A program made the translations under genes and the position numbers. A DNA stretch of 64,000 nucleotides. Origin: Candidatus Parcubacteria bacterium (lineage in GTDB: Bacteria; Patescibacteriota; Patescibacteriia; Patescibacteriales; UBA12075). Positions 32,578 through 59,187 of the stretch are shown here, in pieces; positions within the stretch are counted from its first letter, which is position 1, and each line of letters begins with the position of its first letter. The notes beneath the pieces are model-generated. The model ran no database searches. It worked only from the letters and a program-made list of their open reading frames with translations, and was not told where the DNA came from. The stretch lies in assembly GCA_002869165.1 (NCBI GenBank), contig PKTK01000005.1, positions 2,553 through 66,552 of the forward strand, in the 5' to 3' direction.

Positions 32578-32759
32578 ATGTTTAATTTTTCAATCAAGAA
32601 TTAAAAAATGGAAAATTGTATATTCTTAATTCTTAATTGATAATTTTTAATTGAAAATAATGCGCCCGGATCGAAGAGGCGGAAGCCCCACTGCAGATTA
32701 TTTCAATCTAATATCCAGACAAACATAAATTTATACAGCAAAAGCTATACAAATTTCTG

Positions 32760-39764: not shown

Positions 39765-40229
39765 AATTTGGAAATTAAAATATGAATATATTATTTTTGT
39801 TTACAAGACGGGTAAAAAACAAAAATAATATATTCATCTTTGGTTTATTTTTAATAAGAGTTCGTTTTTTGTTTTGATTATTTGATTATATCAAGTTATA
39901 GATTAAAACAAAAGACTGTTATTTGTTTATAACATGTGAATAAAAAGTGTACAAGTTGATTTGTCAATTTTCTTCACATATCACACAGCATATATCACAT
40001 AATATTTTTGTTTTTGTTTTTTTGTGGATCAATTTCAAAAAACAAAATAAATTTATTTTTTGATATTTGTTGTGTTATATGTGTTGTGTTAGAATGTTGA
40101 CTTTTTACTTATAAAGTGTTAATTTTATTTCATAAATAATAATAAAATTTCACTAAAAACAAAAAACAACAGTAAGTTGCTTTATTTTTTTTGAAAAAGA
40201 TGTAATGTTAGTGAAAATATAGCAAATAT
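39765..40229. other. candidate oriC / dnaA control region (rpmH-dnaA intergenic)
   Basis: 465 bp of very AT-rich spacer between divergent dnaA and rpmH. DnaA-box-like 9-mers: TGTGAATAA (39935-39943), TTCTTCACA (39970-39978), TGTGGATCA (40023-40031). A perfect 21-bp inverted repeat spans 39782-39802 / 39817-39837. Confidence 0.45.
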
Positions 40230-43854: not shown

Positions 43855-44156
43855 TTTTCAAATCACCTTTTGTTAAAATATTAGTCTAAAAATCTTTCTT
43901 TTCTGTACAAGAGCGAATTAACACAAAGACCAGTTAATGAAATTACATTACTATGATTAAAAACAATAAAAGATTTTCTAGAAAACATTTTTTTGTCACG
44001 TTTTTTTGATAGTTTTTTACATTTCTTCACGTCTTTTCCTCTTTTGTTTTTTTTATTTCCTGTCATTCCCGCCGAGCGAAGCGAGGAAAGGGAATCTCAT
44101 AAATGTGCCTTCAAACAAAAACTCAATATAAGCTTCGCGAGTAACACAGCAAATAA

Positions 44157-44986: not shown

Positions 44987-45204
44987 TAGAGAATATTGAT
45001 AATTTAATTATATAGCTTTTGTTATTTCCGATAACGTTTCTCGATATCTGAAGTTTTGATTCAACTTTATTAGTAATAATTAGGAATCAAAATTTGGGTG
45101 AAAGAAATTTATCCTCCGTATTAATCTTTCTTTGGAGCGAAGCGGAAGAGAAAAGCTAATAAAGGTGAATTTCTGGAACCGCATATGCAGGTGTTAAGTG
45201 AAGT

Positions 45205-47374: not shown

Positions 47375-47575
47375 TTTATCATTACGAGTGGATCCGTCAG
47401 GCGGCGGAGAAAAATCCCATGAACATGGAAATTGATCGGCTCCAGTTAGTAACAGCCACCTCAAACAATGCTTTTCTTTTAGTCATTTTCACTTCCTTTT
47501 TTGTCATTCCCGCAAGGCGGGAAGGAGGTGAATTGCAAAGCAAGATAGGCCACCCTGGAGTGTCCAGAAATTTAA
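47375..47575 (+). repeat. two tandem long units of the GTCAT-hairpin repeat family
   Basis: Unit 1 (47375-47480) runs TTTATCATTACGAG...ACAGCCACCTCAAACAATGCTTTTCTTTT. Unit 2 starts at TTGTCAT (47501) with a perfect hairpin TTCCCGC-AAG-GCGGGAA (47507-47523), followed by GGTGAATTGC...CCCTGGAGTGTCC, which is homologous to 53683-53726. Confidence 0.65.
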
Positions 47576-53540: not shown

Positions 53541-53569
53541 CCTCGGGCTTTGGCTCGGGGTTTTATTTT
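53541..53569 (+). terminator. intrinsic terminator of the surface-protein gene
   Basis: CCUCGGG (53541-53547) pairs with CUCGGGG (53554-53560), including two G.U pairs that form only in the + sense RNA. It is followed by TTTTATTTT. Confidence 0.6.
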
Positions 53570-53644
53570 GAATTAAGAATTAAGAATTTTGAATTAAGAA
53601 TTAAGAATTAAGAATTAAGAATTAAGAATTAAGAATTAAGAATA
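53570..53644. repeat. 7-bp microsatellite (AATTAAG)n
   Basis: Two copies, a TTT interruption, then six perfect copies of AATTAAG and a partial copy. Confidence 0.9.
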
Positions 53645-53655
53645 ACCTCTTTTAG

Positions 53656-53792
53656 TTGTCATTTTGAAGCGTTATCGAAGAAGAAGGTGAATTGCCGAAG
53701 ACAAGAGAGATTGCCCTGGAGTATCCCTTGAATATGAGGATAAGTAGGTTGCTGCAAGCAACCGCCACCACAAACAACACTTCTGTCTTTTT
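53656..53792 (+). repeat. long unit of the GTCAT repeat family
   Basis: TTGTCATTTTGAAGCG...GAAGGTGAATTGCCGAAGACAAGAGAGATTGCCCTGGAGTATCC...GGTTGCTGCAAGCAACCGCCACCACAAACAACACTTCTGTCTTTTTTT. It is homologous to 47501-47575 and to the tails at 47452-47480 and 3241-3280 (reverse strand). Confidence 0.65.
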
Positions 53793-55391: not shown

Positions 55392-55970
55392 TTATGCAGG
55401 AATTGCAAATGTACAAGCTTGTTTTTTGTCGCCAATATTTACTTTTGCTTCAAAAATAAATACCCTTGATCCTTTTTCTATGTTTGGTGTAAGTGAACAC
55501 CAGGCCAATTTATCACCGCCGATATTTACAGCTCCTATGTTGTGACTAGGCAGTGGAAAAGATTCTGATTCAGTAGATACGGTTGGTTTTTTTTCATTTT
55601 CTTTTAAGATCTGAGCTTCTGCAGTAAATTTTTCAATTAATGCAAGTTTTTCATCTCTTGTTTTCGTAATTAATTCGTCACTGTAATTTGAGTAATAACC
55701 AGTTGTGAGTTCTGCATGAACTATCAGCTCTTCTTTGGTGGCAAAAAAATTATATTATTCGAAATAATCAGAGTCAATATCAGGTCTATTTAAATTATAG
55801 CGAGTATCGATTGAAATTTCTCTGTGGAAAATTTCTTTGCAATGATCACATTGCCAGAACTCATCTGATTTAAAAATCCTATTTTGCTCGACCTCAAAAG
55901 CAGTTTCTGAAAATTTTTTAAGCCTGCCCTTTTCGCAGTCACATTCTACATAAGTTATAATTTTTGGCAT
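55392..55970 (-). pseudogene. zinc-ribbon paralog interrupted by one in-frame TAA
   Basis: The track ORF 55755..55970 (MPKIITYVECDCEKGRL...DSDYFE) ends at the TAA at 55755-55757. The same frame continues for 121 codons (YNFFATKEELIVHAEL...NIGAVNIGGDKLAWCSL...FAIPA) to the TAA at 55392. The continuation aligns with the C-terminal half of the upstream paralog and contains no Met. Confidence 0.75.
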
Positions 55971-55981
55971 TATGTATCCTC

Positions 55982-56545
55982 CTATCTTTTGATAGCTATA
56001 TAATATTCATATTCTTCACCAAAAATAGAAACGGTATTATAAGAAATTATAATACTATCACCTTCTTTGATATCTGAATCAATAAGACACCAGGCAAAGT
56101 TAAATTTTGAAATTTTAACAGCTCCAATATTTGAATTTGCCGCAGGAAATATATCACTAAGAGAAGTGCCAACAGAAAAAGATAAATCTGTATGATCTTT
56201 TCGCAAAGTAGCCTCTTTTATTTTTCTCAGTGTGATAATGAGATCTTCGTGCATTGGCAAAAAGCATCCAAATATTTGACCTGTTATATCAATTATTTCT
56301 TCTTTGGTGGTTGAAAATGTAAGTTTTATAAATTCTTGATAAACTGTTTTTGATGTGTCGTCCAGAGCATTTTTGCTTTTGTCGCGTTGGAAAATCGATA
56401 AACATTTATCACATTGCCAGAATTCACTGCACTCGTTAAACCGGTTTCCCTTTGAATCGCTAGAAGTATAAATACTTGTTTCCGCAAATTCAGTGAGTTT
56501 GCCTTTTTCGCAATCACATTCTACATAGTTTATAATTTTTGGCAT
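55982..56545 (-). CDS. hypothetical protein: N-terminal CxC...CxxC zinc-ribbon-like module + beta-rich C-terminal domain
   Basis: MPKIINYVECDCEKGKL...FWQCDKC, with AGGAGAG upstream. It is a full-length paralog of 55392..55970. No family recognised. Confidence 0.6.
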   Translation of the reverse strand: MPKIINYVECDCEKGKLTEFAETSIYTSSDSKGNRFNECSEFWQCDKCLSIFQRDKSKNALDDTSKTVYQEFIKLTFSTTKEEIIDITGQIFGCFLPMHEDLIITLRKIKEATLRKDHTDLSFSVGTSLSDIFPAANSNIGAVKISKFNFAWCLIDSDIKEGDSIIISYNTVSIFGEEYEYYIAIKR

Positions 56546-56759
56546 TTTTCTCTCCTGTTTTTATTTAGTCTTGTTTAAGGAACAGTTTGATTTGATTGTT
56601 TAAATTAACACATTATAGTTAGTATGTCAAATAATTAAATTTTGTTTATTAATTCAACGAATAATACTGAGTTTGTTTGAACTGTAGGTTAATTTAACTA
56701 TTAAATTATAAGAAATCTATTGAGAATGACAAAAGAAAAGGTTATGATATAATATATAT

Positions 56760-57830
56760 ATGAAAAAAATAATATTTATAATTTTATTAATATTTCCATT
56801 TTTTGCATTTGCTCAAGATGCAAGTTTTCAAGCAGAAGTTATAGAGATTTTAGCAGAGCAAAACACTGTTTTGCCAGATGGACAAGAAGTGTTTCAACAG
56901 AATGTGAAACTGAAAGGATTGAGTGGAGATTTTAAGGATGAGGAAGTTGTTTTTGAGGGGATTGGTGATTATGATGTGGTAAAAAAGAATCTATATGAAG
57001 TAGGGGACAAGGTTATTGTGGTTGAGAACATGTCTCATGATGGAAGTAGGGAATATTATATAACCGATTATGTTAGAACAAGTCCGATTTATTATTTATT
57101 GGGAATATTTTTTGTGATAATGATAGCGGTGGGTAGATGGAAGGGGATCCGAGCTATTTTGTCATTAGTATTATCATTTTTAGTAATTATTAAATACATA
57201 ATTCCACAGATTTTATCTGGAGCTGATCCGATTGTGGTTAGTATTATCGGGTCATTTTTGATACTCTTAATAGTTGTATATTTAACAGAAGGCTATTCTA
57301 AAAAATCACACATTGCTAGTATTTCTATTTTTGTTAGCTTGATTTTGACTATGGTGTTGTCTTGGTTTTTTGTTGAGATTGCAAGGTTATCAGGCCTTGG
57401 AAGCGAAGAAATATCTTATTTAGTCTCTTTGGACATCTTTACAATAAATTTTCAAGGTTTATTGCTTGCAAGTATTATCATTGGAACACTTGGGGTCTTG
57501 GATGACGTGGTAATATCACAGATCTCAACTGTAGAGGAATTGATAAACAGCGGTGTGAAGATAAAAAAAGAAATATTTAGTAGTGCCTACAAAGTGGGTG
57601 TGTCTCATATTTCTAGTATGACTAATACTCTGTTTCTTGCCTATGCCGGAGCATCATTTCCCTTGCTTATTTTGTTTGTTAGTGGTCAAAGCGCTTTTTC
57701 GGGTCTTACTGATGTTATAAATAACGAGGCAATTGCTACAGAAATTGTGAGGACTTTGGCAGGTTCTATTGGTCTGGTTTTGTCTGTGCCAATTTCTACT
57801 TGGATGGGGGTAGTGTTTTTGAAAAAATAA
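56760..57830 (+). CDS. YibE/F-family integral membrane protein
   Basis: Signal peptide, a ~100-aa extracytoplasmic domain, then 6-7 TM helices. The architecture and GTLGVLDDVVISQ resemble YibE/F. Confidence 0.5.
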   Translation: MKKIIFIILLIFPFFAFAQDASFQAEVIEILAEQNTVLPDGQEVFQQNVKLKGLSGDFKDEEVVFEGIGDYDVVKKNLYEVGDKVIVVENMSHDGSREYYITDYVRTSPIYYLLGIFFVIMIAVGRWKGIRAILSLVLSFLVIIKYIIPQILSGADPIVVSIIGSFLILLIVVYLTEGYSKKSHIASISIFVSLILTMVLSWFFVEIARLSGLGSEEISYLVSLDIFTINFQGLLLASIIIGTLGVLDDVVISQISTVEELINSGVKIKKEIFSSAYKVGVSHISSMTNTLFLAYAGASFPLLILFVSGQSAFSGLTDVINNEAIATEIVRTLAGSIGLVLSVPISTWMGVVFLKK

Positions 57831-57833
57831 TTC

Positions 57834-58055
57834 TTTGTCATTCCCGCCTGCCCCGTCTTCTTGCGGGGGCGAGCGAATATTTTTCTCTTTGTCATCCTGG
57901 GGCTCGGAACGAAGTGAAGAGAACCCGGGATCCATCGTTTTGATTGCGGTAAAATTTTACTTGTCATTTCGAACGAAGCGAAGCGAAGAGAGAAATCTAT
58001 TTTTTTTCTCTTAAAATACGTATTATAGATCTCTCATTTCATTCGAGATGACAAA
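57834..58055. repeat. cluster of four short GTCAT-hairpin units (three direct, one inverted)
   Basis: Units at 57834-57880, 57887-57933, 57960-57997 and 58028-58055 (inverted). Each has TTTGTCAT, a stem beginning at the AT, and a purine-rich loop with GAAGCGA/GAAGTGA. Confidence 0.75.
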
Positions 58056-58089
58056 AATATAATGTTTATCGTAGATTTGTATTTCACCC

Positions 58090-58136
58090 TTGACAAGTAA
58101 AAATTTTTATGATAATATTTAGATAGTTATCTAAAT
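58090..58136 (+). promoter_or_regulatory. arsR promoter with overlapping palindromic operator
   Basis: TTGACA (58090-58095), a 17-nt spacer, and TAATAT (58113-58118). It is immediately followed by ATTTAGATA-GT-TATCTAAAT (58117-58136), a perfect 9-bp inverted repeat. Confidence 0.6.
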
Positions 58137-58154
58137 ATCTAATATTAATATAAT

Positions 58155-58415
58155 ATGAGTTTTAATAAAACAATGCAGGCCTTAGCTGATCCGACTAGAA
58201 GAACGATATTAGAAAAATTAAAGAAAAAAGATATGCCAGTGGGGGAATTGGCTAAGAATTTTGATATTACCTTGCCTAGTTTGTCACACCATTTAAATAT
58301 CTTAAAACAAGCCGATTTAGTAACATCTAGAAGAAAAGGACAAGAAATGATTTATTCACTAAATTTAAGTGTCTTTGAAGGTGTTGCCAAAACCCTGGCT
58401 AAGTTTTTTAAATAA
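58155..58415 (+). CDS. ArsR/SmtB-family (SdpR-like) transcriptional repressor
   Basis: LADPTRRTILEKL...VGELAKNFDITLPSLSHHLNILKQADLV, the winged HTH of the ArsR family, 86 aa. Confidence 0.85.
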   Translation: MSFNKTMQALADPTRRTILEKLKKKDMPVGELAKNFDITLPSLSHHLNILKQADLVTSRRKGQEMIYSLNLSVFEGVAKTLAKFFK

Positions 58416-58420
58416 AATTC

Positions 58421-58452
58421 TTTGTCATTCCTGCGAAGGCAGGCATGACAAA
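58421..58452 (+). repeat. perfect nested GTCAT hairpin between arsR and the SdpI-like gene
   Basis: TTTGTCAT-T-CCTGC-GAAG-GCAGG-C-ATGACAAA, starting 6 nt after the arsR stop. Confidence 0.75.
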
Positions 58453-58515
58453 ATAATAATATTAAATAATTCGCATGTGGTCCATTTGTAGTGGGTCCGA
58501 GCGAAGCGAGTAACA

Positions 58516-59187
58516 ATGAATCCAATAAAACCAACAATCAAAACAGAGCTGTTTGCTGTATTGCTAATAATTTTAGCTTGCCTTAGTTCAATTTATTTTT
58601 ATAGTGTTTTTCCTTCCAAGGTACCAATTCATTGGAACATAGAAGGACAAGTTGATAATTATAGTTCAAAAGAAATTGGAGCTTTCTTATTTCCCGTAGT
58701 AATACTAGCTATGTATTTAATGTTTATATTGATCCCTTATTTGGATCCCAAGAAAAATAGATATGACGAATTTAGAAAAACTTATCATATTTTTAAAAAC
58801 TTGATGATTTTATTTATGACCATAACATATTTTGTTGCTAGTTTTTCCGCAATTGGTATTGGTATGTCAATTAGCACCTGGATTCCTATTATGGTTGGTA
58901 TGCTTTTTGTGGTTTTAGGAAATTACATGTCAAAGATTAAACCAAATTGGTTTATGGGTATCCGCACTCCTTGGACATTATCAAGTGAAGAGGTTTGGAA
59001 CAAGACACATAGATTTGGCGGACTTGTTTTTATACTAGGTGGTCTTGTTATGATGTTCATGCCAATATATCCAAACAACATTAAAATGATTTTGTTTATC
59101 ACGATTGTTTTGTTAATGTCGCTTGGTACAACCCTGTATTCACTTTATTTATTTTTAAAAGAAAAAAATGGAAAAAATAATAAGTAA
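58516..59187 (+). CDS. SdpI/YhfL-family membrane protein (immunity-protein-like)
   Basis: N-terminal DUF1648-like helices (IHWNIEGQVDNY) and the SdpI-type segment KPNWFMGIRTPWTLSSEEVWNKTHRFGG. It is paired with an ArsR/SdpR-type gene. Confidence 0.6.
   Translation: MNPIKPTIKTELFAVLLIILACLSSIYFYSVFPSKVPIHWNIEGQVDNYSSKEIGAFLFPVVILAMYLMFILIPYLDPKKNRYDEFRKTYHIFKNLMILFMTITYFVASFSAIGIGMSISTWIPIMVGMLFVVLGNYMSKIKPNWFMGIRTPWTLSSEEVWNKTHRFGGLVFILGGLVMMFMPIYPNNIKMILFITIVLLMSLGTTLYSLYLFLKEKNGKNNK

Follow-up and report, generated by a model that had tools for sequence, protein, structure and literature searches.

What are the short hairpin repeats that fill positions 57834-58055 of the window (the whole stretch of 64,000 nucleotides of Candidatus Parcubacteria DNA analysed here, 31.5% G+C), between the stop codon of a YibE/F gene (57830) and a promoter-like site upstream of arsR? 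Four repeat units (U1-U4) occupy this interval, and five more (U5-U9) lie elsewhere in the window. Judged by their sequence, the units are probably repeats of the class formed by the Neisseria NTS and the Ssn-related motifs (SRM), that is, hairpins in single-stranded DNA that serve as recognition sites of Ssn-family nucleases.

Chenal et al. (Nat Commun 2025; PMC11893778) describe hairpin repeats of single-stranded DNA as the targets of small GIY-YIG nucleases, the Ssn proteins. SsnA is a single-domain GIY-YIG protein of 94 amino acids (aa; cd10448) that binds the hairpin as single-stranded DNA only and cuts a few nucleotides upstream of it; double-stranded DNA and RNA are not substrates, and the RNA form is not bound. 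Cleavage depends critically on the three bases that precede the palindrome, and binding on the C that follows it. The Neisseria NTS has the consensus CGTCATTCCCGCGMAVGCGGGAATCYRG, with dRS3 (ATTCCC-N8-GGGAAT) as its core, and SRM are inverted repeats of 20-50 nt around ssnA homologues in many bacteria, for which the degenerate string HGTCWYN(0-2)YYVSBRHN(0-5)WNVSBRGN(0-2)RNCYNB was published (PMC11893778). This string permits loops of at most about 5 nt.

The coordinates and complementary arm pairs first listed for the nine units in a preliminary description of this DNA were all confirmed by reading the sequence (Table 1). GTCAT is present in 9/9 units, its GTC preceding the stem and its AT opening it, and the T before the GTC is the same T that is at least 90% conserved in the foreign units considered below. 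The arms are complementary over 4-8 bp and the units measure 24-45 nt. A C stands directly 3' of the palindrome in five of the nine (U2, U3, U4, U6 and U8), not in U1, U5, U7 and U9. All nine are intergenic on the open reading frame (ORF) map, as had been claimed, and the earlier dismissal of the ORFs running through them as artefacts is reasonable: these ORFs either have no Pfam match or overlap real genes; in annotation, ORFs called through such units are best treated as spurious.

A scan for GTCAT-anchored hairpins was noisy at 31% G+C, and pattern searches with shuffles and a covariance model were therefore used instead. The pattern TGTCATYYY-N(8-30)-RRRATC has six matches in the window against 0.27 expected, and none of 100 shuffles reached six; five of the matches are listed units, and the sixth (590-614, coding, AT-rich) looks like chance. 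Four matches to GCGAAGCG were found against 0.14 expected, all on the plus strand and all intergenic, and TTGTCAT occurs 26 times against 14.1 expected. A repeat search over the whole window gave AT-rich chance families only. The units are identical across four independent assemblies.

A very large family of real proteins of about 95 aa was retrieved with a GIY-YIG bait sequence, which was used solely for this purpose. One of them, P0161 from a Paceibacterota metagenome-assembled genome (MAG; locus L010), served as the query against a collection of species-representative genomes, and at least 521 relatives were confirmed. Of these, 80 loci were kept, whose proteins are about 95 aa long and 54-75% identical to P0161. 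The 80 loci span many phyla, with at least 13 Patescibacteria among them, and include Roizman-, Davies-, Gottesman-, Buchanan-, Portnoy- and Saccharibacteria, Kazan and Parcubacteria. P0161-like proteins consist of a single PF01541 domain, and the catalytic spacing Y8/Y19/E66 of P0161 equals Y6/Y17/E64 of SsnA. A PDB sequence search returned no solved Ssn, just distant UPF0213 proteins; NCBIfam was uninformative, and PADLOC gave no defence-system match. Viral contigs yielded distant GIY-YIG proteins only (33-52% identity), so that phages are not obvious carriers of the nuclease family.

GTCAT-anchored hairpins with at least 5 Watson-Crick pairs reach a density of 10.6/kb within 100 bp of the nuclease gene, compared with 0.24/kb at a distance of 2-4 kb, and seven control 5-mers in the same loci range from 0.2 to 1.6/kb. 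A unit lies within 500 bp of the nuclease gene in 77/80 loci, and units lie on both sides of it in 63/80. The nearest upstream unit is in sense orientation in 57/66 loci and the nearest downstream unit is antisense in 57/71, with a median distance from the gene of 26-30 bp on both sides; the units around nuclease genes are thus arranged as inverted pairs with GTCAT at both outer ends. A C follows 240/265 of these foreign units, and their loops are mostly 11-12 or 18-23 nt long. The nuclease-and-repeat module is present in Patescibacteria, and in two Parcubacteria/Paceibacterota MAGs (L010 and L079) the ssn-like genes are embedded in unit arrays. The P0161 gene itself is surrounded on both strands by densely packed GTCATTGC...GCAATC units, whose long loops vary. 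In L079 (3790-4445), a 94-aa GIY-YIG gene and its arrays lie between hypC and hypD, and a composite of about 110 bp (unit, 60-nt spacer, inverted unit) is directly repeated on both sides of the gene; this site looks like the insertion of a mobile module. The insertion sequence (IS)-like look of ssn and its flanking repeats has also been noted in PMC11893778. The exact 28-nt Neisseria NTS consensus was found 13 nt upstream of the nuclease gene in L086, with an inverted copy of the core downstream, and L078 and L088 carry NTS cores beside the same protein family.

Membership of the window units in this family was assessed with a covariance model, R1, trained solely on 39 distinct foreign units with 11-nt loops and on no window sequence. 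The 39 units had been selected by their outer stem alone and were aligned without gaps. The five best matches of R1 in the window are U4, U8, U3, U7 and U6. In sequence directly adjoining the window, R1 found more units of this genome, and in some of these GTCAT has decayed to GTTAT. The other four window units belong to other subclasses, and close counterparts of each occur next to GIY-YIG genes elsewhere. U1 resembles the long-loop ATTCCCGC units that flank the GIY-YIG gene in L085. U2, whose purine-rich loop of 22 nt contains GGAACGAAGTGAAG, has counterparts in L082 and L035, and its loop core recurs beside an Ssn-like gene, in a flanking unit with the loop GAGCGGAACGAAGTGAAGTGAA. U5 has counterparts in L088 (GTCATTCCTGCGAAGGCAGGAATCC, by the GIY-YIG gene) and in L062 (a near-identical unit with the loop GGAG), and U9 in L086 and L078. 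U9 is nearly the Neisseria NTS core, except that its arm is missing the last T and no C follows, and in U5 CCTGC/GCAGG is nested in TTTGTCAT/ATGACAAA, with one mismatch in the 3' arm.

The long loops themselves have a structure. Enclosed by an outer AT-YYY/RRR-AT stem, they are purine-rich and read GA-[xy-G-N-A-y'x']-GA(A), examples being GAGCGAAGCGA, GAACGAAGTGA and GAGTGAAACGA, and the archetype GAGCGAAGCGA contains GCGAAGC. Among the 39 foreign units the first inner pair is GC in 31 and AU in 8, with none unpaired, and the second is CG in 20, UA in 8 and UG in 4; the observed covariation was not approached by any shuffle or slid register. Within the window, U3 and U8 have GCGAAGC itself and U4 has a compensated AT-GAA-AT inner helix. 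Compensated paralogues also exist in the outer stem: U6 (ATCTC/GAGAT) and a unit in the sister-sample contig L004 (ATTTC/GAAAT) have nearly the same loop, and likewise U4 can be paired with a unit at L091 7582-7614. The claim of a true repeat family, with arms that stay complementary as their sequence varies, is borne out, and the compensated paralogues and the inner helix make a folded single strand the right idea. The commonest repeat form around this nuclease family is the long-loop unit with a covarying GNA mini-hairpin. GCGNAGC is an "extraordinarily stable" DNA mini-hairpin (PMC13037366); this stability fits a single-stranded-DNA structure, and the mini-hairpin may explain why generic energy rules under-score the long-loop units.

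The mechanism proposed for the units is that of the characterised SsnA. The palindromes would fold into hairpins once the DNA is single-stranded, and an Ssn protein (single-domain GIY-YIG, about 95 aa) would, by analogy with SsnA, read the GTC, the stem and the trailing C on one strand only and cut a few nucleotides 5' of the unit, ignoring double-stranded DNA and RNA. The ssn gene and its units would form an IS-like module, [GTCAT-hairpin>] ssn [<hairpin-ATGAC]. The window pairs U3/U4 and U6/U7 are convergent like the units around nuclease genes, but enclose no gene; these pairs and the solo units would most simply be non-autonomous or decayed derivatives of such modules. The genome may encode a cognate Ssn that cuts the units, and the units may move or influence recombination.

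Several results weigh against this assignment. No GIY-YIG gene was found by regular expression, tblastn, hidden Markov model (HMM) or Pfam in the window and 10 kb on each side (about 84 kb, or about a tenth of a typical genome of about 1 Mb); the positive controls of the GIY-YIG HMM scored 1e-48 and 1e-38, and the best window score was E = 0.17. Neither the published degenerate SRM string nor the NTS consensus is matched by any of the nine units, whose loops are too long for them. Since the string matches in 3/80 nuclease loci only, it captures a short-loop minority and is blind to the long-loop subtype; it serves to search for short-loop repeats and does not define the class. U1, U2, U5 and U9 went undetected by R1, an 11-nt-loop model, and four units (U1, U5, U7 and U9) are without the C reported to be crucial for binding. 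None of the 80 foreign loci showed the ATCTC stem of U4 and U6, and the window has at least six stem classes, as against usually one or two in the arrays beside ssn genes. The P0161-like proteins are only putative members of cd10448, the Ssn family of the NCBI CDD. Finally, with nearest-neighbour DNA energies, only the short-loop units U5 (-8.0 kcal/mol, z = -4.2) and U9 (-7.5 kcal/mol, z = -4.65) fold better than shuffles; the long-loop units are no more stable than shuffles (z = -0.9 to +0.8, standard DNA energy rules), so that the case for a hairpin in them rests on complementarity and covariation and not on computed energy.

Part of this evidence would also fit repeats that are of the SRM class by origin and idle today, having lost their cognate Ssn or never had one, and that are now decaying and were possibly imported with DNA. 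Besides the missing ssn-like gene, the damaged copies (U1, U5, U7 and U9 without the 3' C or part of an arm, and loop-only fragments), the mutation of GTCAT to GTTAT or ACTAT in upstream copies, and the six stem classes point in this direction. Yet the density of units, about 14 to 16 per 84 kb in the source genome (window and 10 kb on each side), is high and genome-specific, with far fewer in relatives; U2, U3, U4, U6 and U8 are intact; and only about a tenth of a typical genome is visible here. Ssn is encoded in 81% of genomes with more than 200 SRM (PMC11893778). Such an orphan state is a live alternative as to present-day function, which we regard as possible but doubtful.

Elements acting at the RNA level, whether intrinsic terminators, stabilisers of mRNA 3' ends or small RNAs, are very unlikely. 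U1 begins 3 nt past the YibE/F stop codon and U5 begins 5 nt past that of arsR, T-runs follow U1 and U3, and repetitive extragenic palindromic (REP) elements stabilise mRNA. The sole terminator-like match of the region falls within U1; it is weak, and 0.7 such matches are expected in 57700-58600. An intrinsic terminator would be a G+C-rich stem with a loop of 3-8 nt and a T-run behind it, in sense orientation at the end of a gene. The orientation of the units relative to neighbouring genes is mixed, U8 and U9 being antisense to theirs and U4 lying upstream of arsR on the opposite strand, and intrinsic terminators were rejected on this ground, on their single weak site and on the length of the loops. 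Rfam 15 gave only tRNAs at gathering score and nothing credible near the units at E <= 1 to 5. Given the occurrence in both orientations relative to genes, the inverted pairs around nuclease genes across the family, the failure of SsnA to bind the RNA form (PMC11893778) and the lack of an Rfam match, the evidence favours single-stranded DNA over RNA as the form that matters. The preliminary description had proposed selection on a folded RNA or single-stranded DNA; of this, the folded single strand stands and the RNA form falls away, and complementary arms alone are no proof of purifying selection; copies without a hairpin may simply cease to propagate. Its implied novelty has likewise gone, since the repeats essentially match a family that has already been described and has a known function (NTS/SRM, PMC11893778). 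A system in which an IS200/IS605-type Y1 transposase, and not a GIY-YIG nuclease, recognises and spreads the hairpins, as with REP sequences and REP-associated tyrosine transposases (RAYT), would have an analogous architecture of an oriented 5' motif and a hairpin, in clusters resembling bacterial interspersed mosaic elements (BIME), and in L008 an NTS-like unit does lie about 55 bp from a 50-aa Y1_Tnp fragment. Against it, tblastn with IS200 TnpA and this fragment found no other Y1 transposase in 1.15 Mb, including the window and the 80 loci, it is the GIY-YIG gene that units consistently bracket, and the conserved motif is GTCAT and not the REP-type GTAG; we consider this origin highly improbable. 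As for chance palindromes or low complexity in an AT-rich genome, the GTCAT-anchored scan does yield many AT-rich chance stems in coding DNA. A chance origin is nevertheless excluded by the 20-30 times over-representation of the unit pattern and loop motif, the E-values of the independent model R1 (4.7e-6 and 0.0047) and the identity of the units in four assemblies.

The features of the window are collected in Table 1. The junction order is YibE/F, U1-U4, arsR, U5 with a loop-only fragment, and sdpI, and the promoter-like site upstream of arsR is TTGACA-17-TAATAT at 58090-58118. U3 and U4 form a convergent pair with 30 nt between them (95 bp in all), as do U6 and U7 with 115 nt between them (182 bp in all); U6 directly follows an intrinsic-terminator-like hairpin. 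The two loop-only fragments that had been described do carry GAGCGAAGCG, but neither is individually significant; 58498-58510 is a partial R1 match (10.2 bits, E = 3.3).

Table 1. Repeat units, related fragments and cassette genes in the 64-kb window, with scores of the covariance model R1
Feature	Coordinates	Strand	Sequence features	R1 bits	R1 E-value
U1	57834..57878	+	TTTGTCAT and ATTCCCGCC...GGCGAGCGAAT; nested CCCCG/CGGGG hairpin; 3' arm without following C
U2	57888..57932	+	TTTGTCAT; stem ATCCTGGG/CCCGGGAT at 57894/57924 with one T.G pair; then C
U3	57961..57997	+	TTGTCAT; stem ATTTC/GAAAT at 57966/57992; 21-nt loop GAACGAAGCGAAGCGAAGAGA (with GCGAAGC); then C	17.9	0.045
U4	58028..58055	-	TTTGTCAT; stem ATCTC/GAGAT at 58029/58045; 11-nt loop GA-AT-GAA-AT-GA; then C; best R1 match in window	34.4	4.7e-6
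U5	58421..58452	both (palindromic)	TTTGTCATTCCTGC-GAAG-GCAGGcATGACAAA; NTS-like 8-bp arm, 4-nt loop
U6	3162..3199	+	TTTGTCAT; stem ATCTC/GAGAT at 3168/3194; 21-nt loop; then C	14.3	0.34
U7	3315..3343	-	TTTGTCAT; ATTCT.../...GGAAT with one G.T pair; then T instead of C	17.1	0.07
U8	44061..44096	+	TGTCAT; outer stem ATTCCC/GGGAAT at 44065/44090; inner CC-GA-GC-GAA-GC-GA-GG; then C	22.0	0.0047
U9	47500..47523	+	TTTGTCATTCCCGC-AAG-GCGGGAA; arms TTCCCGC/GCGGGAA at 47507/47517
Loop-only fragment	45131..45155	+	GGAGCGAAGCGGAAGAGAAAAGC; possible decayed unit, weakly supported; not detected by R1
Loop-only fragment	58491..58514	+	TCCGAGCGAAGCGAGTAAC; immediately before sdpI start codon; possible decayed unit
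Possible degenerate unit	53656..53690	+	TTGTCATTTTGAAGCGTTATCGAAGAAGAAGG; adjoins (AAGAATT)n array; tail like sequence after U9; uncertain
arsR	58155-58415	+	Pfam
sdpI-like	58516-59187	+	Pfam; arsR-sdpI cassette = 58155..59187

The surroundings of the units differ between relatives. In the closest ones (L008 and L009), YibE/F is 66% identical and the trxB...YibE/F-SpoU order is kept, with YibE/F abutting SpoU directly (53% identical over its full length), without the cassette; in the more distant L005-L007 an ABC-transporter pair occupies the YibE/F-SpoU junction instead. The units thus border a variable gene cassette whose junction differs between relatives. No genuine unit occurs in 46 loci with SdpI relatives (174 kb), so the repeats are not carried along with the arsR-sdpI cassette. 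L008 has one unit in 11 kb, and no credible units were found in about 37 kb of non-redundant sequence from L005-L007; high unit density is specific to the source genome. In L008 (97-332) the unit is a canonical short-loop one, CTTTGTCATTCCCGCGGAAACGGGAATCCAGA, about 55 bp away from the IS200-like transposase fragment at a contig edge. The GC skew of the window follows gene orientation and is therefore silent on the direction of replication.

The sister sample ERZ794998 has a 3.2-kb contig of 3x coverage (L004) whose sequence is the same as that of the window across YibE/F, U1 and U2. It departs from the window (L004 1700-1970, window 57800-58000) after ...CCCGGGATCCA, the last common base being window 57934, right after U2. 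Past the divergence come a minus-strand unit and then tsf and rpsB, with two more units between these two genes, and the contig also holds a convergent pair of units without a gene. The divergence reflects either a chimeric assembly or a strain that is rearranged at a unit boundary.

A further unit cluster was observed among tRNA genes at L091 7130-8760, about 0.8-2.5 kb upstream of the start of the window. It includes an intact minus-strand unit (7582-7614, R1 34.1 bits), a tiny GTCATTCT-GAA-AGAAT unit directly 3' of a tRNA, and copies in which GTCAT has decayed to GTTAT or ACTAT. Heptamer arrays, (AAGAATT)n or (AATTCTT)n, are found at window 53565-53650 and L091 7627-7684, and also at window 32622-32658; at two places an array and a TGTCAT unit are spaced 15-20 nt apart and arranged alike. 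Since the common ATTCT/AGAAT stem has AAGAAT as its 3' arm, the arrays may stem from slippage in unit arms. About 45 nt past U9 (GGAGGTGAATTGCAAAGCAAGATAGGCCACCCTGGAGTGTCC; window 47500-47570) resemble the sequence past the degenerate TTGTCAT at 53656 (53656-53725), and the two stretches have a second block in common, (C/G)CCACC(T/A)CAAACAA; this shared sequence may be a longer repeat or an RNA, it had no Rfam match, and the pattern was found only in loci of the source genome. GT-rich simple repeats (TGTTATGTGTTGTGTGAT...) are intergenic at window 2636-2665, 3376-3405 and 40061-40090, one of them about 30 nt from U7. Elsewhere in the window, two adjacent minus-strand genes (55755-55970 and 55982-56545) have 5' ends that are 83% identical over 69 nt (55903-55971 and 56478-56546), which suggests a local duplication. 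The RtcB gene on the Paceibacterota contig that carries P0161 (L010 1015-5229) has intein-type insertions, with Intein_splicing and LAGLIDADG matches.

The assignment would place an unexplained repeat of a genome of the candidate phyla radiation (CPR) within a known mechanism, that of single-stranded-DNA hairpins read by Ssn nucleases. What is new here is the CPR host, the dominance of the long-loop mini-hairpin subtype around the nuclease family, and the position at a variable-cassette junction; CPR cassettes flanked by units are candidates for Ssn-modulated recombination of incoming single-stranded DNA. A more far-reaching proposal can be made. The long-loop units might form a distinct and very widespread SRM class in which the hairpin continues through tandem G.A mismatches into the covarying GNA mini-hairpin; the gene-less convergent pairs might be non-autonomous elements mobilised in trans by Ssn, itself the enzyme of an unrecognised IS-like single-stranded-DNA element; and the units might mark or drive cassette exchange at junctions like YibE/F-SpoU in DNA-scavenging CPR bacteria. 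Taken jointly, we consider these suggestions speculative and rather unlikely.

Among known systems, several were compared with the units. Integron attC sites were rejected, as no matching core sites were seen by eye, no integrase is among the annotated genes and orientations are mixed; CRISPR repeats and uptake sequences have the wrong architecture. As to miniature inverted-repeat transposable elements (MITE), the convergent pairs U3/U4 and U6/U7 have inverted ends of unit size, and no target-site duplication is discernible in their T-rich flanks. With dRS3 and the Neisseria intergenic mosaic elements (NIME) the units have in common intergenic arrays of short inverted repeats with short spacers beside variable genes, but no associated filamentous-phage recombinase was seen, and the window has no match to the strict ATTCCC-N8-GGGAAT 20-mer, whether exact or with one mismatch. 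REP and BIME are likewise single-stranded-DNA hairpins with a short oriented 5' motif, extragenic, often in inverted pairs and flanking the gene of their cognate enzyme; here, in contrast, the partner is a GIY-YIG and not an HUH/Y1 enzyme, GTAG is lacking, and no Y1 gene lies near units except for the L008 fragment.

The closest likeness is to NTS and SRM: a palindrome beginning with AT, an oriented GTC immediately in front of it, a C after it (in five of the nine window units), and inverted repeats of 20-50 nt in intergenic clusters that bracket genes. U9 (TTTGTCATTCCCGC-AAG-GCGGGAA) and U5 (GTCATTCCTGC-GAAG-GCAGG...) come close to the NTS core. The window units differ in that T and not C precedes the GTC, several stem classes occur inside one genome, the long loops measure 11-22 nt and have an inner GNA mini-hairpin where the NTS loop has 4 nt, and the host is a CPR (Parcubacteria) MAG, hosts of this kind being unmentioned in PMC11893778. 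Searches of the full-text literature for explicit long-loop sequences returned unrelated primer matches only. As for the mini-hairpin, GCGAAGC is the commonest loop core of the family and also occurs in U3, U8 and both loop-only fragments. GCGNAGC has been known from physical chemistry and aptamer engineering and not as a part of genomic repeats (PMC13037366), whereas in the present family its stem covaries (GC, AC/GT, GT/AC and AT/AT) around the G-N-A loop.

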